Virus record (IMG/VR): IMGVR_UViG_2908567220_000005
Length of the DNA stretch: 10,878 nt
DNA from: a virus
Taxonomy: Duplodnaviria; Heunggongvirae; Uroviricota; Caudoviricetes
Strand: one strand, 5' to 3'
The position numbers and the translations under genes were made by a program. The notes beneath the pieces were generated by a model. It made no database searches. It was not told where the DNA came from and saw only the letters and a program-made list of their open reading frames with translations. Position 1 is the stretch's first letter. Each line of letters begins with the position of its first letter. Of the stretch, positions 2,613-10,878 are shown one piece after another.

Positions 2613-5054
2613 TCAATCATCACTCTGCCCGCTCTCCACACCGTAAGCGCGTGGCATGAACTCCTCAGCCTTCTCGTTATAGCCAACGTTGGTTTGCGCT
2701 CTGCCGTTAATGCTTCTCGTCAGGTAGCTGGCTCGGTACTCTTTTGCTGCTGATTTTATGGCGCGTGAAAACTTATTGACGGAAAGCGGTTTACCCAAAC
2801 CGTGATACTCCATAAACGCCAGATAAAGATGATAAAGATACGTCCTCGGCTCTGGCTGGCCTGCCCATGTACCTCCGCCCATCATCATGCCTTTGGGTTC
2901 GTTCATGAAAAAAAGCGTCGCACACATATCGACAACCGGATCCGTGCCGCGTTTAACCTCTAGCGCCTCCTGCGAATCGCGCTGCTCTAGTAATAGTGCC
3001 TTTGCTTTGTTCTGGTCGGCAAAGGTGGTTAGCAGGTGGCGGATAATCACCGGGATTTCTCGCCTGATTTTTGCGGTTAAATCCGGGTCTTTGTCTGCGT
3101 CTGATACCGGGTTATTAAACGGGAATATCACGCGGCGGCGGGCAATGCCCCCGTTTCGCTCCGTGAATGTCATCGGCTCGTTATTGGTTGCCATAACAAC
3201 GGCATTTATCACGGTTGTGAACTGCTTTTCATATTTCCCATCAATCTCTACCGGATCGCCGCCCGTAATGGCTTTAATCCCCGCACCCTCTCCAACATAG
3301 CGGGTCTGGTCAGGCATAATAATCAGGCTTTTTCCTACGAACTGCGCCCGTCCCCGTGCGGTGTCCAGCGTCATCATGCTACCGCTGGCGGTGTTGTGTT
3401 CACCTGCCAGCGTGGTTGCTATGCTGCTGAATACGGATTTCCCACTGCCGCCCTCGCCAGTTATCTCAATGAATAGCTGCCAGTCGTGACGCTTCGCCAG
3501 CACCATAAACAAGGCTGCTTTGATACGCTCGGCCTTATGATGGTCGCCAGCCGTTGCATGATTCAGCCAACGGGTAAAATTGGGGGCGCTGGTGGTAATA
3601 TTTTCCCCCGGCGCTGGCGGGGTGTAGGTGATCCCATTGTGGTTCATCAGCCAGTTACCCGGCGAATGGGCGGAAAACGTCTGCGTAGCGAGGTCATAAA
3701 CGCCGTTATCAAAACCAATCAGATCCCCGCTCCGCTCACCAATTACCGGTATTTGCAGCTTCATGGTTGCGACAACCGATTTAATCCCCTTTTCGGTGTA
3801 GTGGGCTTCGTGCTCGTCGAAAATTGCCACCATAACCCTTTCTAATTCGCTGCCTGGTAGCTTCACCCATACGCCAGATTCGTAGCAGTAAACAGTGCCA
3901 CTATCAGGGTTAACCGCCAACATATCCCATCGAGATGAAAGCAACCGCGCTTTCTGGCTGGCTGCCATTTGTGCAATATCTCCGACATCGGCTTTACGGC
4001 GGGATTTACCGCCGTCAATGGCTTGCAATCGCGGTTTCACGGCTTCCCCTTGAATCTGGTACATCGAATCGTTAAACGCAGCCGTAGCGACTTCCAGCCC
4101 GTTTTGCTGGCGGTAGTCGTCCCAGTCGGCTTTGTAGTCTGTCGGCGGCAGCGCCACCCAGCCAGCCACGGATAAGGCGGCTTTCTCTGCGGCATCTTTG
4201 CCCGTGTTCGCCTGTTCGTCCTGCTGGTGGTCGTTATCTGCGGCAATGATAATCTGCACGGCTGGATATATCCGGCGCATCACTTCGGCAACGGGTAGCA
4301 GGTTGCCCGCGTCAATTGCTGCCACTGCCAGCGCGTCCGGGCGCATCAGGTGAACTGAAAGGGCCGTCGCCAGCCCCTCGGCAATTAAAACGCTCTGCGG
4401 CGATTCTGGCGCGTTTACGGCGTGATATGCCCCGCGCTTTGCTGAACCTGTCAGGAGTCGTTTATCTCCCTGCGGCGTGATGGTCTGCGCCGCCACTACT
4501 GCGCCGGATTCATCCACCAGCGGCAGGAGTAGCGAACCATCAGACATAACCGGGTAATTAAACCCGGTCAGCCCTTTTGATTGCAGGTAATCAGATTCGC
4601 CCTGTGTGACACTCTGGCGCATTCCGGCATACAGACGGGCAAACGTAGCCCTTCGCTGCTCTGCGTCCTCTGCTGCCTGTTTCTGGCGCTCCTGCTCACG
4701 CTGCTGGCGGTCAGCTTCCAGTTGCTCTCTTCTATGGCTCGCTGCCACCGGGTCGGTTTGCGCTGCCCGGTAATCAATACCCAGCACGTCAGCGGCAAGC
4801 TGTGCCGCCTCCGTAGTGTCGCAGTTGTTAACCCGCTTGATTAAATCCAGCCCGTCACCAGCGCCACACTGGTTGCAGATAAAGCTACCGCGCCCGTTGT
4901 CGTCGAATCTGAAACGGTCTTTTCCACCACATGCAGGGCATGGAGAATGGCGGCGCGATGAATCAGGAACGTCGATAGACAGGCCAGCCAGCACATAAGG
5001 CCATTTACCAGCGGCGGCGGTGGTCACTTCGCGGATAAGGTCGATATTACGCAT
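2613..5054 (-). CDS. P4 alpha-type bifunctional DNA primase / helicase (813 aa)
   Basis: ATG at 5052..5054 with SD GAGGGAG; TGA stop at 2613..2615. N-terminal Cys4 zinc-finger (CPACGGKDRFRFDDNGRGSFICNQCG), a central Toprim-like acidic region (VLIAEGLATA ... IIIAADNDH), and a C-terminal P-loop NTPase with Walker A (EITGEGGSGKSV). Size and layout match P4 alpha-like primases, followed by iterons. Confidence 0.9.
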   Translation of the reverse strand: MRNIDLIREVTTAAAGKWPYVLAGLSIDVPDSSRRHSPCPACGGKDRFRFDDNGRGSFICNQCGAGDGLDLIKRVNNCDTTEAAQLAADVLGIDYRAAQTDPVAASHRREQLEADRQQREQERQKQAAEDAEQRRATFARLYAGMRQSVTQGESDYLQSKGLTGFNYPVMSDGSLLLPLVDESGAVVAAQTITPQGDKRLLTGSAKRGAYHAVNAPESPQSVLIAEGLATALSVHLMRPDALAVAAIDAGNLLPVAEVMRRIYPAVQIIIAADNDHQQDEQANTGKDAAEKAALSVAGWVALPPTDYKADWDDYRQQNGLEVATAAFNDSMYQIQGEAVKPRLQAIDGGKSRRKADVGDIAQMAASQKARLLSSRWDMLAVNPDSGTVYCYESGVWVKLPGSELERVMVAIFDEHEAHYTEKGIKSVVATMKLQIPVIGERSGDLIGFDNGVYDLATQTFSAHSPGNWLMNHNGITYTPPAPGENITTSAPNFTRWLNHATAGDHHKAERIKAALFMVLAKRHDWQLFIEITGEGGSGKSVFSSIATTLAGEHNTASGSMMTLDTARGRAQFVGKSLIIMPDQTRYVGEGAGIKAITGGDPVEIDGKYEKQFTTVINAVVMATNNEPMTFTERNGGIARRRVIFPFNNPVSDADKDPDLTAKIRREIPVIIRHLLTTFADQNKAKALLLEQRDSQEALEVKRGTDPVVDMCATLFFMNEPKGMMMGGGTWAGQPEPRTYLYHLYLAFMEYHGLGKPLSVNKFSRAIKSAAKEYRASYLTRSINGRAQTNVGYNEKAEEFMPRAYGVESGQSDD

Positions 5055-5953: not shown

Positions 5954-6129
5954 GCTGCCACCTCACGAATGCGGGTAATCTGGATGTGGGAAAGGCGTTC
6001 ATTTCTGGCCTGATTTAGCGCCTCAGCTTTGGCGCTGATCGCGCTGCGGGCGTCAACGATATAAACGAACTCGACTAATTCGCCGCTCCGGGCGGTGGCG
6101 CATCCTGCAACACGGAAGTAATTAAGCAT
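5950..6129 (-). CDS. Hypothetical protein (59 aa from the ATG at 6127..6129; the 69-aa track ORF starts at a TTG at 6159)
   Basis: The ATG at 6127..6129 overlaps the last codons of the upstream Icd-like ORF (ATGCTTAA), suggesting translational coupling. Stop overlaps the next start. No recognisable motif. Confidence 0.4.
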   Translation of the reverse strand: MLNYFRVAGCATARSGELVEFVYIVDARSAISAKAEALNQARNERLSHIQITRIREVAA

Positions 6130-6313
6130 GTGCGCCCCCTGTGCGAATACGTCCGGCAAAAAAGCAAACGTGATCCCGCGCCAGAATGCGGCGGGCTTCC
6201 TGCTCAGTTTCTGCGGCGATATGGTGAATTTTGGCGGTAATTGTCGGCATGTCGCGGCGAACGGCTGCGATTAACCAGATAAATTGTGGATTTTGGGTAG
6301 GGGTAGTAGCCAT
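6122..6313 (-). CDS. Icd-like small protein (host cell division inhibitor Icd family-like), 63 aa
   Basis: ATG at 6311..6313 preceded by SD AGAGG with an 8-nt spacer; TAA stop at 6122..6124. Sequence MATTPTQNPQFIWLIAAVRRDMPTITAKIHHIAAETEQEARRILARDHVCFFAGRIRTGGAHA resembles my recollection of Icd-like proteins in P4-like prophages. It forms the C-terminal part of the 257-aa track ORF, which I consider spurious upstream of this start. Confidence 0.5.
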   Translation of the reverse strand: MATTPTQNPQFIWLIAAVRRDMPTITAKIHHIAAETEQEARRILARDHVCFFAGRIRTGGAHA

Positions 6314-6319
6314 GATGGC

Positions 6320-6525
6320 AGCCTCTATACAGTGAATTTTGAATTCACCACCAAGAGACGCCAATCTCAGACTGGTGGTGAGCTGAACAAGGTTGGCGTA
6401 ACCGGCCTGTATAGACACCGGCCTTCCTTTCGGAAGCCTCATCCAGCCCACCATAATTTGGGTGCGCAGGAATTTTGCCGACAAAAAAACACGCTTAGTG
6501 CGTGTCGGCACTATACAGGTTATCG
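6320..6525 (-). ncRNA. Structured leader / candidate antisense immunity RNA (phage P4 CI-like or P1 C4-like)
   Basis: Plus-strand CTATACAG at 6325..6332 and 6511..6518, with its reverse complement CTGTATAG at 6407..6414. On the minus-strand transcript the order is CUGUAUAG ... CUAUACAG ... CUGUAUAG. The middle copy sits in the loop of a CCGG-stem hairpin (6401..6423). The last copy abuts the SD of the Icd-like gene. Other hairpins: GTGAATT-N3-AATTCAC at 6332..6348, CACCACCA-N19-TGGTGGTG at 6346..6380, CTTCC-TTTC-GGAAG near 6424..6437. Boundaries and strand are inferred. Confidence 0.4.
6481..6505 (-). terminator. Candidate intrinsic terminator inside the leader (6-bp stem, 5-nt loop, U7 tract on the minus strand)
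   Basis: Plus-strand ACACGC (6489..6494) / GCGTGT (6500..6505) inverted repeat preceded by A7 (6482..6488). On the minus strand this reads hairpin then UUUUUUU. It lies between the first and second 8-mer elements. Confidence 0.4.
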
Positions 6526-6833
6526 GGACGCCAATCCCGGCACCTGATTTTGCAGGTGCGCTATAACCATAAACCGGGTTGGCGATAGTCGGCAAGCCCT
6601 TTTTTATGGACTCGCAAAACTCACCTTCGCGCGTGCGCGTACTGGTCGCAAAACTCGAAAAAAACTTAGGATTTATTAGGATTCGCAGCCCAATTCTCAG
6701 CCCAGAAAACGCCTCTAAAATGTCGTCATTTGTCGCAACGGCGCGGCGATGAATGTCAGGTTTTGACAGGTTGTAAGGGTTAACATTTGTTAACAGGCTA
6801 GCCAGATTAAAGGCTTCTTTCTGGGCGGCAGGT

Positions 6834-7016
6834 TCATTCAGTATCACGGCGCACCTCCACGAACTCCTTAACGAATCTCTCCAAAGGCTGAACACATGGC
6901 GACTGATAGCCCTCGCGGTAAAAGGTCACTCGGTTATGCTCGACGCGCTGTACGGTCACTACAGCCCCGTGCGAATCCTTGTAACGGCTTCCCGGCATCG
7001 GATTATGGTTACGCAT
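6834..7016 (-). CDS. DUF4222-like small protein (60 aa)
   Basis: ATG at 7014..7016. Sequence MRNHNPMPGSRYKDSHGAVVTVQRVEHNRVTFYREGYQSPCVQPLERFVKEFVEV follows the pattern I recall for DUF4222 prophage proteins (YRD..G..VTV..V...RV.F.R.GY). Overlaps the 3' end of the antirepressor gene by 8 nt. Confidence 0.6.
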   Translation of the reverse strand: MRNHNPMPGSRYKDSHGAVVTVQRVEHNRVTFYREGYQSPCVQPLERFVKEFVEVRRDTE

Positions 7017-7854: not shown

Positions 7855-8286
7855 TTAGGCGGCGGTGAGATTGTCCGGGTATAGATTGAGAATGTCGGCA
7901 ATTTCAGGCTGAGAAAGTCCCTGATAGCCGCCAGCGTCGGCGTTATGGTTCACAAGCCGAATAACTTTTAGAACGTCACCGCGCCCGGTAAAGCGATAGC
8001 GTAAATGTGACCCTATCCCGTCGGGGTTCTTTTCGTCTATACGCTCAAGCTGAATATCAAGCCTGCGCTCTAACTCGCTGGCGTAGTTCCTTCCAGACGA
8101 AAGGCGGCAATAACGCAGAATATCGTTTTCTGTCCATCCCTCTATACCAGTACGCAGCATATAGACGCGGGCGCGGTGTTTCTTTGGGGTACGCTTAGGT
8201 ACTTGTACAGGGCTGGTGGGCGGGGTAATATCAGTACCGCGAATATCTGAATTAGCCGCCTGTAATGGGCGGTTTTTCTTTTCCAT
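7855..8286 (-). CDS. Hypothetical protein (143 aa), translationally coupled to alpA
   Basis: ATG at 8284..8286 overlaps the alpA stop (TAATG). Pro/Thr-rich basic N-terminus followed by a predicted helical domain. No confident family assignment. Confidence 0.55.
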   Translation of the reverse strand: MEKKNRPLQAANSDIRGTDITPPTSPVQVPKRTPKKHRARVYMLRTGIEGWTENDILRYCRLSSGRNYASELERRLDIQLERIDEKNPDGIGSHLRYRFTGRGDVLKVIRLVNHNADAGGYQGLSQPEIADILNLYPDNLTAA

Positions 8287-8489
8287 TACGCCACCTTTCC
8301 CCGGCGCTCCGCCAGCCAGTTGTGAATATCAGCCGCATCAAACGCAGTTATTTTTTCTCCCAGCTTTACCGGACGTGGTAGTGAACCGTTTCTTACTTTA
8401 CGGTCGATGGTGGATACACTAACGCCCAGCAATTCAGCCAGGCGAAAGCGTCTGATATAGCCTTTTGTAGGGATAGTGTCGATGTTCAT
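8286..8489 (-). CDS. alpA: AlpA/Vis-family phage transcriptional regulator / excisionase-like HTH protein (67 aa)
   Basis: ATG at 8487..8489. Sequence RFRLAELLGVSVSTIDRKVRNGSLPRPVKLGEKITAFDAADIHNWL is the AlpA-type HTH signature. Its position downstream of a P4-type integrase matches the int-alpA arrangement of CP4-57/P4-like elements. Confidence 0.8.
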   Translation of the reverse strand: MNIDTIPTKGYIRRFRLAELLGVSVSTIDRKVRNGSLPRPVKLGEKITAFDAADIHNWLAERRGKVA

Positions 8490-8552
8490 GATTCCCGTAA
8501 CCTCTTAGCGATAGTTGTTGCTTCGTTACGAGAAATCTAGCTGTATAGATAT

Positions 8553-8586
8553 ACAATGAAAAGGTACTGTAATTTTGCAGTACCTC
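8553..8586 (-). terminator. Candidate intrinsic terminator downstream of the 316-aa ORF
   Basis: Perfect 8-bp inverted repeat AGGTACTG (8562..8569) / CAGTACCT (8578..8585) with an 8-nt loop. On the minus strand it is followed by UUUCAUUGUAUAU. It sits between the stop of the 316-aa gene (8596) and the alpA start. Confidence 0.35.
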
Positions 8587-8595
8587 TATAGCAAG

Positions 8596-9546
8596 TTAAC
8601 TATCCACTTTGCCATTTGCCGCAGATCGTAGATGTTTAAGAATTACATCTTCATTAGTTATCATAAGTGGTGGAACTTCGTCTAAATGACGAACAAGACA
8701 GTCACGCCACTTCTCAGGGCTTATTTCTTTCCTTTCTCCCCTGCATTCATTTGGATACTTACTAAGTATATAAATTGCAGATTTTAATAGTTTCTCCCTA
8801 TTGACTGCGTACCGTTCGGCACGTTTATTAACTTTTAGCGTATTTATATCATTGGATAACTTGTTTGCGGATGGTTTGTGCATGGGGCTGTCATAAATAT
8901 ATTTTCCTCCATTTATAAGAAGATTGTATTCATAGTCAGTTATATACATTTTATTTCGGCTTATTTCATACCAGCCGTCAATATAAAAAGCTCCGATTTC
9001 ATAATTATTCGATTTGCTAAACTCGTCACATCTCGGAGGCATCAGTTCGCATACAGAGATCTCCCAATCATCCCATTCTGATAGCTCCCGCTCATCGTTA
9101 TCTATGAACGCAGACGGAATTGCTAATAGACCGTTCCATCTTTCGATATCTCTTTCATCCTTCCCAACATTGTATCGCTCTATAACTGAGAAATGTTCTG
9201 ATTTGTATGAAAACCTCATAAAATACATATGGTTATCGCTATTTTTATAATCAAGCGGTGATAAGCCATATGATTCGAGATTATCTGCCTCATTGCTCAG
9301 ATCAAGAAGATAATTCTCATGTACTGCTTTTGTATCTATATGAAAAATACTATCTGTTTCAACTTTAAGTAATTCTGGATCGGCATCTTCATTTTTGGGG
9401 TAATGGTAAAACAATTCAATAGGTGGAATTTTTATACATATTTCTAAAACCCCAATTGCTGCATAGTGTATTAAATCGGATACTTCACATCCGGCCAGTT
9501 TGGCTGCTTTATCCAAAGAATAATATTTATGCGCAGGTAATTTCAT
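8596..9546 (-). CDS. Hypothetical AT-rich cargo protein (316 aa) between integrase and alpA; possible N-terminal HTH-like region
   Basis: ATG at 9544..9546 with SD GAGAGGAAAG, only 18 bp after the integrase stop. Clearly lower GC than flanking genes (by eye roughly one-third GC versus about one-half). N-terminus YYSLDKAAKLAGCEVSDLIHYAAIGVLE looks HTH-like; the remainder is acidic and aromatic-rich with no motif I recognise. Confidence 0.65.
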   Translation of the reverse strand: MKLPAHKYYSLDKAAKLAGCEVSDLIHYAAIGVLEICIKIPPIELFYHYPKNEDADPELLKVETDSIFHIDTKAVHENYLLDLSNEADNLESYGLSPLDYKNSDNHMYFMRFSYKSEHFSVIERYNVGKDERDIERWNGLLAIPSAFIDNDERELSEWDDWEISVCELMPPRCDEFSKSNNYEIGAFYIDGWYEISRNKMYITDYEYNLLINGGKYIYDSPMHKPSANKLSNDINTLKVNKRAERYAVNREKLLKSAIYILSKYPNECRGERKEISPEKWRDCLVRHLDEVPPLMITNEDVILKHLRSAANGKVDS

Positions 9547-9564
9547 TATGAATCTTTCCTCTCA

Positions 9565-10818
9565 TCATGCTCTGATTGGCGTTACGTTGTAGTCTTTTCC
9601 GCTTTCCAGTGCCACCAGCAAATCACACCACTGCGCCAGCGCCGCTTTACGCTCATCAAAATACTGGTGACGGTTATAGATACCCTCCACACCTTTAATT
9701 TTGTGATTAAGGCATCTTTCTGCGACTACCGGATCAACGCCCAGCGCTGCTAAATGAGTACGTGCGGTGCGTCGGAAGTCGTGAATCGTGAAATTAGGCA
9801 CATCCGGCATTTCGGCGCGAACCTTAGCCAGTGCTACGGGCAGGGTGCTTTCCTGAATATGGGGGATCATGCGGTTTTGCATCTTTCTGGCTGGCAGTAC
9901 CCATGCGCTGTTGCATGAGAACGTTTTAAGCTCTCTCAGCCATTCGACGGCTGGCGGTGCTAATGGGATGTCTATAGCGTCGCCGTTTTTGCTGCGTTCC
10001 TCTGGCAAGCGCCATACGGCTTTATCAAAATCGAACTCCTCCCAGCGGGCGGCGCATAACTCCATTTTGCGGACGCATAACGCTAACAGTAATTTGAACG
10101 TGATTTCGTTCTGGCGACTGAATCCCTTAGCCGTGCGCATGGCTTTGAATAGCTGGATTAACTCATCGCGGGTTAACCAGCGGTCACGGGCAACTTCTTT
10201 CCCTCCGGCGTCTGCCACCTCAAAGGCTGAACAGGGGTTAATCTCTAGCGCGTGCCGTTTGATTCCGTAGTCGAATATGCGGCGCGTCCATCTCAGCACG
10301 TCCGTTGCTATGGTCGGCGCTCCACGGTCAACAATACCTTTCAGCATGTCATCGATATGGCGCGGTTTCACGTCCTCTACCTTCATGCTGCCAATGCAGG
10401 GGTTTATATCTTTGTCGATACGGCGGCGGAGTATATCGGGGTGCTTCCAGCGCGGGAGGATCTGACGCTCAAAGTATTCAGCGGCAAGCTCTGAAACGCG
10501 CATAGCGTTCTTCTCTGCTTCCATCTTCGCTAGTGCTTCGGTTTTGCGCTTCTGCTTCTCTCCTGCAACGTCATAGCCCAGCGCAACGCGAGCCGATAGC
10601 TCTTTGGCTGTCTCTCTGGCCTTTGATAGTGATAGCTCGCTATACGAACCAATTAGCATGGCGCGGGACTTCCCTGCGAGTTTATAGCGGAATCTCCATG
10701 TGGGGGTTTTGTCGGCTTCACGGTAACGTAGGTATAAACCGTTACCGTCTGCCCGCCCCTCGAATCGCTCTCCGCTCTTAATCCATGCGCGGATCTGCAT
10801 GTCTGTTAGTTTTGGCAT
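9565..10818 (-). CDS. int: P4-family tyrosine integrase (site-specific recombinase)
   Basis: Preferred start is the ATG at 10816..10818 (MPKLTDMQIRAW...), giving the typical P4-type N-terminal arm-binding region (GNGLYLRYR ... WRFRYK). The track ORF extends in frame to an ATG at the window edge (10876..10878). C-terminal catalytic domain has HDFRRT (HxxR) and a conserved Tyr near the C-terminus (GIYNRHQY). TGA stop at 9565..9567. Confidence 0.9.
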   Translation of the reverse strand: MPKLTDMQIRAWIKSGERFEGRADGNGLYLRYREADKTPTWRFRYKLAGKSRAMLIGSYSELSLSKARETAKELSARVALGYDVAGEKQKRKTEALAKMEAEKNAMRVSELAAEYFERQILPRWKHPDILRRRIDKDINPCIGSMKVEDVKPRHIDDMLKGIVDRGAPTIATDVLRWTRRIFDYGIKRHALEINPCSAFEVADAGGKEVARDRWLTRDELIQLFKAMRTAKGFSRQNEITFKLLLALCVRKMELCAARWEEFDFDKAVWRLPEERSKNGDAIDIPLAPPAVEWLRELKTFSCNSAWVLPARKMQNRMIPHIQESTLPVALAKVRAEMPDVPNFTIHDFRRTARTHLAALGVDPVVAERCLNHKIKGVEGIYNRHQYFDERKAALAQWCDLLVALESGKDYNVTPIRA

Positions 10819-10848
10819 TTTGCGAATATCCAAACTTTGAATAGGGGG

Positions 10849-10872
10849 TGTACCCAAAGCAATGTACCCAAA
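10849..10872. repeat. Direct 10-bp repeat TGTACCCAAA x2 upstream of the integrase start; candidate arm-type or regulatory sites
   Basis: TGTACCCAAA at 10849..10858 and 10863..10872, separated by 4 bp, in the integrase 5' region at the window edge. Confidence 0.25.
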
Positions 10873-10878
10873 CCTCAT

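Follow-up and report, generated by a model that had tools for sequence, protein, structure and literature searches.

A variable single-gene slot between integrase and alpA of an enterobacterial phage satellite, and the modular protein encoded in one of its alleles

The 10,878-nucleotide viral sequence IMGVR_UViG_2908567220_000005 (hereafter the window) contains most of a ~10-kb satellite of the phage-inducible chromosomal island (PICI) type, in which an open reading frame (ORF) of 316 codons, here called ORF316 (8596–9546 including the stop codon, ATG start), stands between the integrase gene int and the regulator gene alpA. We find that ORF316 is a real, selected gene and that it is one of at least seven interchangeable alleles of a standing slot. 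Its role most likely lies in satellite control or phage conflict, and the reading that we favour, at a probability of roughly 0.35, is an allele-specific, DNA-binding sensor-regulator of the satellite int-alpA switch. AlpA is the master activator of Gram-negative PICI-type satellites, and how helper phages are sensed and alpA is switched on remains an open question (PMC6092414, PMC11773190): no repressor has been identified in these elements, and the induction of alpA by helper phage is unexplained (PMC6092414). In addition, section 6 of PMC11364771, citing earlier work from the same group, reports that the 5′ and 3′ ends of PICIs encode immune systems; the int-proximal end is also a reported reservoir of new ones. 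Coordinates below are those of the window unless another locus is named, and the genes, protein modules and RNA elements located in it are all read on the minus strand.

A standing slot with interchangeable alleles

A 3-kb query reaching from the 143-aa gene beyond alpA to int matched 703 E. coli genomes. In the 27 listed records with both flanks matching, drawn from an evenly spaced sample of the ranking, the span from int to the 143-aa gene was ~2.98–3.13 kb whether or not the middle matched. Seven such islands were examined, and each had one co-oriented gene of 216–321 aa in the int-alpA interval. By sequence comparison, a 321-aa protein belongs to the same family as ORF316, with a C-terminal module 78% identical, a 307-aa protein has only the N-terminal module in common, and a 281-aa protein is weakly related at both ends. 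A DUF6387 protein, a 293-aa type and a 216-aa type (the last in two of the seven islands) show no detectable relation to ORF316. The flanks of islands with different slot genes are 80–96% identical in int and 74–94% in the alpA flank, and the edges are sharp: DNA homology to the window ends 6–13 nt inside the 3′ end of int (9571–9578) and resumes 41–45 nt upstream of the alpA ATG (8530–8534). The replaceable cassette is thus about 8535–9577, and takes in the likely alpA promoter region.

Across 5,426 complete E. coli genomes, the ORF316 allele was present in 41 and the other alleles in 76, 111, 37, 33, 13 and 3 (314 in total), nearly always as one chromosomal copy per genome. The N-terminal module is common to four of the seven E. 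coli alleles and to 187 of the 314 genomes. The commonest allele is the 216-aa type (phrog_30524; 111 genomes), which overlaps the int stop codon by 4 nt. In loci L018 (1133–2254) and L019, 471 nt of AT-rich DNA without gene annotation separate this allele from alpA; similar gaps precede alpA in L028 and L029, where the L029 protein has a different accession.

An earlier reading of the window, made from its letters without database searches (the sequence-only reading), had singled out 8553–9564, a span that takes in ORF316, a downstream hairpin and the 18-nt spacer to int, and had regarded the gene as an orphan inserted into an otherwise conserved int-alpA junction. Its suggestion that the interval could be a variable hotspot is borne out by the different genes between conserved, sharply bounded flanks. 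The insertion model is not: the interval is a standing slot, filled by a co-oriented gene of 216–321 aa in every yicC-site island examined.

Nor is ORF316 an orphan. A search of 5.8 billion proteins returned 61 close clusters of homologues, all from Enterobacterales and all annotated as hypothetical, and an exhaustive profile search gave 634 representative clusters at E ≤ 1e-3. Ten distant clusters that were looked up (Salmonella, Klebsiella, Enterobacter and Brenneria) were again all hypothetical. The position is fixed: in 13 of the 13 contexts retrieved, the gene lies in a primase-bearing satellite, after a P4-type tyrosine integrase gene on the same strand and before alpA (a Bro-N gene in one case). 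The hosts were E. coli, Salmonella, Serratia, Pantoea (two), Kosakonia, Rosenbergiella and Enterobacter; the islands occupy mostly the yicC site, but also an asd-adjacent site and, in one instance, prophage late genes. No member of the family was found in 50,697 phage records, and the sole match in the plasmid collection was a 4.9-Mb record of chromosome size. The sequence-only reading had reasoned that conservation across related elements would mark a core gene; the family does keep this position from genus to genus, but other alleles take its place in related islands, and islands with a different type of integrase have none. The island within prophage late genes is from Enterobacter (L011–L013), and its family member (L011 6001–6963) is 45% identical to ORF316. 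It sits directly after prophage terminase, portal and MuF-like genes, has an AT-rich integrase gene (39% GC), lacks the int-alpA RNA described below and carries the Bro-N gene instead of alpA. It matches the 'helper-embedded PICI' type described in PMC10111431.

That a PICI can carry a variable gene at its int-proximal end is already known. In the curated libraries and literature that we searched, there is no description of this family or its strongly conserved 75-aa C-terminal domain, of the one position that it keeps, of the series of seven or more alleles or of the connection with the int-alpA RNA.

The slot gene is closely coupled to int. The spacer at 9547–9564, TGAGAGGAAAGATTCATA, lies between the int TGA (9565–9567) and the ATG of ORF316; it contains an AGGA Shine-Dalgarno sequence and is too short for a promoter, and a consensus promoter scan of the ORF316 strand found no promoter-like site. 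Since an 18-nt spacer with a Shine-Dalgarno sequence leaves a promoter no room, ORF316 is placed on the int transcript. The spacing is 11 nt in locus L024. Where the same core genes are combined with other integrases, at tRNA-Thr or a further site, no gene is annotated between int and alpA, which implies that the slot travels with the yicC-type integrase module, and not with alpA or the rest of the island. Together with the resemblance of the modelled N-terminal fold to the excisionases Xis and RdfS, and the 4-nt overlap with int in the unrelated 216-aa allele, these observations could point to an accessory factor of the integrase, co-expressed with it: a recombination-directionality or att-site architectural protein with an Xis-like N-terminal domain. 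We consider this improbable. Integrase genes 90–96% identical in DNA are paired with unrelated slot proteins, and in the helper-embedded PICI the integrase that precedes the family members is of a different clade. In addition, a hypervariable centre of 150 aa would be unexpected in an architectural cofactor, and these elements already have AlpA in the Xis-like role.

A modular protein under selection

ORF316 is the lowest-GC stretch of the window, at 35.9% GC (29% at third codon positions) compared with 53% for int, 50–51% for alpA and 51.6% for the remaining window. The low-GC gene that the sequence-only reading placed 18 nt after the int stop codon is therefore confirmed as such, but its view that the compositional break marks a recent acquisition is contradicted by the family as a whole, which has 36–44% GC in six genera where the integrase genes have 48–54%. 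All four modules of ORF316 have 33–38% GC, including the slowly evolving C-terminal module (38%), and the other slot alleles have 37–43%. For these reasons the low GC does not date the acquisition; it is a long-kept trait of the family and of slot genes, and no sign of recent import here.

Compared with a relative 87% identical, ORF316 has dN/dS values (ratios of non-synonymous to synonymous divergence) of 0.07–0.27 across its segments. Between genera, the C-terminal domain has proportions of non-synonymous differences (pN) of 0.14–0.18 and of synonymous differences (pS) of 0.72–0.92. With synonymous sites saturated and the protein nonetheless kept, the conservation of this module reflects selection on protein rather than on DNA. 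A constraint at the DNA level, such as an alpA promoter inside the coding sequence, was considered as the cause of the C-terminal conservation and ruled out on the same saturation and because islands with the same alpA and other alleles lack the sequence. The idea that ORF316 is a recently imported, functionless or decaying orphan hitch-hiking beside the integrase gene has its low GC and want of annotation in its favour, as well as the presence of this allele in only 41 of the 5,426 genomes. We regard it as very improbable given the selection just described, the intact full-length homologues at the same position in at least eight genera and the family-wide nature of the low GC.

The rates of change differ sharply along the protein, and with them four modules can be delimited. 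The N-terminal module (aa 1–44; 9415–9546), predicted to be a winged helix-turn-helix (HTH) of the MerR/Xis/AlpA type, is the module most widely shared in the superfamily. It is followed by a fast-evolving central region (aa 45–189; 8980–9414), made up of a long helix and then a beta-rich domain, and by a linker (aa 190–237; 8836–8979) with a moderately conserved '...DLWIT...LL...G' motif and a disordered loop (aa 224–239). The C-terminal module (aa 238–313; 8608–8835) is a highly conserved helical domain of 75 aa with the consensus AERHAxNREKLxKSAIxLLSKYPxECRGERKEISPEKWRDC...ITNExVILKHLRxAxNGK, and holds 18 of the 20 invariant columns of the family alignment (A1). Identity between genera is 19–54% in the centre and 72–80% in the C-terminal module. 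In the closest allele pair (window 8596–9546 and L022 5001–5951), dN is 0.12 in the centre and 0.01–0.02 in the C-terminal module. The dS of the pair rises from 0.07 in the N-terminal module to 0.44 in the centre and 0.75 in the linker, and drops to 0.18 in the C-terminal module, a ten-fold variation that indicates intragenic recombination between alleles. A specificity domain held between constant modules would fit both this rate heterogeneity and the mosaic of dS values (0.07–0.75).

An AlphaFold model calculated on the family alignment (predicted local distance difference test score 79.8) has a confident beta-alpha-alpha-beta N-terminal domain (aa 8–39), a long helix, a beta-rich centre (aa 109–203), the disordered loop at aa 224–239 and a helical C-terminal domain (aa 241–311). 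The predicted N-terminal fold resembles MerR regulators, Xis, RdfS and also an AlpA-family excisionase, so the HTH-like N-terminus proposed by the sequence-only reading agrees with the model. Profiles of the N-terminal module reach no curated family or solved structure, which makes the HTH call one of predicted fold: ORF316 has no match to Pfam HTH_17 (PF12728), MerR (PF00376) or Phage_AlpA (PF05930), and the best single matches to Pfam among 24 N-terminal modules of the family, one to HTH_17 (E 0.093) and one to MerR (E 0.3), are both below threshold.

Searches of Pfam, PADLOC, PHROGs and NCBIfam gave no usable match for ORF316, PHROG matches at E 0.02–0.07 being disregarded, and the statement that the protein has no recognisable catalytic motif stands for these four libraries. 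Family libraries and a fold search revealed no nuclease, NTPase, TIR, Sir2, protease or membrane domain. The defence models of PADLOC-DB v2 gave nothing at E ≤ 1 for ORF316, and the 321-aa relative matched the candidate model PDC-S31 marginally (E 0.002, 15.6 bits). The fold search found no match for the centre, and the profile of the C-terminal module matched no PDB sequence and no consistent Pfam family; both domains are without known relatives. Two PDB sequence matches, of the whole protein to NDUFB2 and of 24 residues of the N-terminal module profile to the complex I subunit PSST, were rejected as chance.

Non-coding elements and the rest of the island

A hairpin does lie between ORF316 and alpA, as the sequence-only reading had noted. 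It spans 8559–8587, with a core stem GGUACUG/CAGUACC (8563–8584) followed by four U (8559–8562), and has a minimum free energy of −15.1 kcal/mol (z = −2.3; 6 of 200 shuffled sequences fold as well). It is kept in ten family cassettes (that of the window and nine others, from six genera), with compensatory and wobble changes: 92.5% of cells are paired in this helix, where one pair shows A-U/U-A compensation and U·G wobbles are frequent. When partners were slid as a control, pairing of the whole structure fell from 91.6% to 33–43%. The simplest reading is a terminator-like insulator between the int-ORF316 transcript and alpA, at which that transcript ends or is stabilised. The proposal that the gene has its own terminator thus holds for the conserved hairpin and less well for the U-tract, which is weak here and missing from several relatives; the tail, UUUUCAUUG, has only four U and went unreported by a terminator consensus scan that demands at least five T in eight. 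An alternative role of the stem as a palindromic DNA operator is disfavoured, since the variants in its arms are U·G wobbles and one compensatory pair, as fits RNA, and the motif does not recur in the island.

Between the hairpin and the alpA leader, the cassette carries a non-coding block (8535–8558), TTGTATATCTATACAG-CTAGAT, which combines a near-palindrome with a −10-like hexamer and is kept in one subset of family cassettes (TGT..ATACAGTTAAAT). Comparison of cassettes suggests that this is the likely alpA promoter region; a consensus promoter scan found none there. The near-palindrome (8541–8556, TTGTATATCTATACAG on the minus strand) reads TTGT-N8-ACAG, and ATGT-N8-ACAG in relatives. It resembles a LexA box (CTGT-N8-ACAG) apart from a single mismatch, which falls in the critical CTG, and the sole similar site in the locus is the SOS box of the host gene dinD (L002 6216–6231). 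Induction of PICI alpA is reported to be independent of the SOS response (PMC6092414). Next comes a stem-loop in the alpA leader (8490–8534), CUCGUAAC-N23-GUUACGGG, which lies outside the variable cassette and has the Shine-Dalgarno sequence in the 3′ part of its loop. In ten islands from six genera, 90.9% of cells of this second helix are paired and two pairs show compensatory changes, and it may control the translation of alpA or the stability of its mRNA.

In most related islands, int and the slot gene are separated by a conserved spacer of ~95–115 nt, which corresponds to the int-alpA RNA of Rfam (RF02996). It was identified in 12 related loci at 49–70 bits, against a gathering score of 35.8 (L015 2119–2185, L020 2236–2302, L014 5915–5980, L009 5914–5979 and eight further loci), and in all 12 it ends ~20–25 nt 5′ of the start codon of the slot gene, whether or not that gene is related to ORF316. 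The window gave no match at E ≤ 1. The RNA is also absent from islands without a slot gene, from those where the slot gene overlaps int, from CP4-57 of E. coli K-12 and from two relatives with spacers of 11–18 nt. Because it tracks the start of the slot gene across families and is absent where that gene is missing, the int-alpA RNA seems to belong to the slot gene as a shared 5′ leader, or else to mark where the cassette recombines on its left, and does not look tied to int or alpA themselves. The Rfam entry should be reread with this in mind. The ORF316 allele has lost this leader, 18 nt having replaced ~95 nt.

The order of genes in the island is int, ORF316, alpA (8286–8489; Pfam Phage_AlpA and HTH_17), the 143-aa gene, a gene for an AntA-type antirepressor, the D5/DUF5906 primase gene (2613–5054) and a gene for a homologue of the PerC family of transcriptional activators (777–1088; Pfam E 2e-29). 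int, alpA, antA, the C4 and isrK RNAs and the primase and PerC genes are co-oriented, and no structural genes are present. A copy 99.5% identical lies between yicC and dinD in E. coli X14-3 (CP084055), one of the 41 carriers of the ORF316 allele. The integrase (9565–10878) is a tyrosine recombinase of the P4/CP4-57 type (Pfam Arm-DNA-bind_3, Phage_int_M and Phage_integrase) that targets the yicC-dinD site; the island adjoins yicC. Annotated homologues (417–419 aa) start 20 codons further downstream than its ORF as listed (437 aa); translation probably begins at the Met at 10818, which gives 417 aa. The extra stretch (10819–10878) contains two direct repeats, TGTACCCAAA, which may be arm or promoter sites of the integrase rather than coding sequence. 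Upstream of int in L002 there are GTACACCTAG repeats and a 16-nt inverted repeat (16358–16411).

Downstream of antA, 6371–6572 matches Rfam isrK (75.8 bits), C4 antisense RNA (72.4 bits) and the c4 a1/b1 target sites (48.4 bits), by which we identify it as a P1/P4-type antisense-RNA immunity module. The module is also found in the related islands L003, L011, L015, L022, L024, L026 and L027, and a 257-aa ORF listed at 6122–6895 that overlaps it is probably not a gene as listed. A second AT-rich gene (1302–1973, in a region of 42–45% GC) near the other end of the island encodes 223 aa with an HExxH motif (AFHEAGHAV). It has weak matches to Peptidase_M41/FtsH (E 4e-4 in Pfam, 0.008 in NCBIfam) and none in PADLOC, and may be a metalloprotease-like accessory gene.

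The PerC homologue bears on a further explanation, in which ORF316 would be a host-directed moron: a transcription factor that alters host physiology or virulence expression, with no part in conflict between phage and satellite. The PerC homologue borne by the PICI EcCIMP1 is reported to repress the locus of enterocyte effacement (LEE) pathogenicity island in E. coli (PMC11773190). The predicted DNA-binding domain of ORF316, and its expected expression when the island is integrated, would suit such a role. However, the hypervariability of the alleles, the recombining centre and the strict int-alpA linkage would then be unexplained, and one common regulon is hard to reconcile with hosts as different as the plant-associated Pantoea and Pectobacterium on one side and E. 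coli and Salmonella on the other. We think a host-directed role as improbable as that of an integrase factor.

Satellite control or phage conflict: comparison with known systems

In the sensor-regulator reading, ORF316 would be translated from the int transcript while the island is quiescent, set apart from alpA by the conserved hairpin. The central domain would recognise a variable ligand, most plausibly a protein of a helper or competitor phage, while the C-terminal domain would contact an invariant partner, either a host protein or a core satellite protein. The winged HTH would act on DNA in or beside the cassette, which carries the likely alpA promoter region, so that the timing of alpA release, or the phage that brings it about, would depend on the allele, in the manner of an immunity cassette. 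We infer DNA binding, ligand sensing and any effect on alpA from a set of features that favour regulation: the strict position, the absence of the family from phages, the predicted DNA-binding module, the promoter-proximal DNA within the cassette, the uniform single-gene slot, the lack of an effector domain and the gap in published work on how alpA is induced by helper phage.

Several points weigh against this reading. The unrelated slot proteins (DUF6387, 293 aa and 216 aa), found with nearly the same alpA and leader, are more what one would expect of interchangeable cargo than of an essential regulator. No annotated slot gene is present in islands that combine the same core genes with other integrases, and the model PICI EcCICFT073, in which alpA appears from the ORF numbering to follow int directly, is helper-inducible all the same (PMC6092414). 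The island already carries the C4/isrK immunity module. The palindromes of the cassette do not recur elsewhere in the island, and no co-variation of the type of N-terminal module with the downstream non-coding block or the alpA allele was seen by eye across 13 loci.

The sensor-regulator is ranked slightly above a stand-alone defence against phages or other mobile genetic elements, carried in the hotspot at the 5′ end of the PICI and expressed constitutively with int, in which the variable centre would detect phage and the C-terminal domain would be the effector or toxic part. We hold this defence reading to be possible, if doubtful. The sequence-only reading had pointed to the int-alpA junction as a place for accessory or immunity cargo, and the report of immune systems at PICI ends in PMC11364771 (section 6) agrees with this. 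A hypervariable slot with sharp boundaries, at least seven alleles of unrelated families, every one of them AT-rich, and a fast-evolving, recombining centre would be expected of such cargo; the sister islands without a slot gene suggest that it may be dispensable for the satellite, yet every yicC-site island examined has one. The marginal PDC-S31 match of the 321-aa relative points the same way. Against defence cargo, ORF316 itself matches no PADLOC model at E ≤ 1 and has none of the effector domains looked for. Unlike most defence genes, the family was never found in the phage and plasmid records searched or in other hotspots, and it occupies the one position in 13 of 13 cases. A uniform single-gene slot is atypical of defence hotspots, although the size of a ~10-kb satellite could limit its cargo. 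If the slot gene does prove to be ordinary cargo, ORF316 remains a candidate new defence gene. Either way, near-identical islands that differ in their allele offer an experimental handle on helper specificity or phage resistance.

A bolder extension of the sensor-regulator reading, which we think rather unlikely, is that Gram-negative PICI-type satellites sense their helper phages through the slot proteins, which would be the missing sensors and would work like Stl, the master repressor of the Staphylococcus aureus pathogenicity islands (SaPIs) among Gram-positive PICIs. The winged HTH would keep the cassette-borne alpA promoter in check and the hypervariable centre would bind a helper protein, the allele would set the inducing phages and the C-terminal domain would dock a conserved partner; as part of the same unlikely scheme, the int-alpA RNA would be a leader that tunes expression of the sensor. 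Like ORF316, Stl is encoded next to int and shows allelic diversity between related islands. It differs in that ORF316 is co-oriented with the operon that it would control, not divergent from it, and has an extra, highly conserved C-terminal domain, and many Gram-negative PICIs have no gene at this position. Pfam, PHROG, PDB sequence and fold searches gave no Stl- or Rpr-type homology for ORF316.

The K-12 gene yfjH of CP4-57, to which the sequence-only reading compared ORF316, occupies the same kind of position, between intA and alpA, and encodes an uncharacterised protein of similar length (~318 aa; phrog_19089) at 36.8% GC. The likeness does not extend to homology (BLASTP E 0.76; the hidden Markov models of the N- and C-terminal modules miss YfjH; hhalign probability 0.09% with the A1 and A3 profiles) or to orientation, yfjH being on the strand opposite to intA and alpA whereas ORF316 is co-oriented with int and alpA. 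YfjH is a separate family of 19 clusters. Gene _002 of EcCIMP1 was also considered as a counterpart and rejected: it is a different small ORF in a different type of island at tRNA-Thr. The Rfam element RF02996 occupies the same int-alpA interval, including that of the closest homologues of ORF316 in other genera, but is an RNA, and is absent from the window. The predicted N-terminal module recalls MerR, Xis and AlpA proteins (HTH_17) yet lies below every Pfam threshold; unlike MerR, ORF316 has no coiled-coil dimerisation helix directly after the wing, and it is far longer than Xis or AlpA.

ORF316 resembles the accessory and immune regions at the 5′ ends of PICIs in lying next to int, in varying between similar islands and in being AT-rich, and its place between int and the regulator gene of a PICI-type satellite, in an interval of variable content, is that of a hotspot gene. 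It departs from these regions in matching no defence model, in the slot always holding a single gene of ~0.65–1 kb, in the confinement of the family to one position and its absence from phages, and in the predicted DNA-binding module with no recognisable effector.

In lambdoid phages, immunity regions consisting of a repressor and its operators are swapped between conserved flanks. Some slot alleles lack a recognisable DNA-binding module, and the comparison is one of analogy, but the int-alpA cassette is likewise a sharp-edged swap of a putative DNA-binding gene together with promoter-proximal DNA, with many alleles present in one species.

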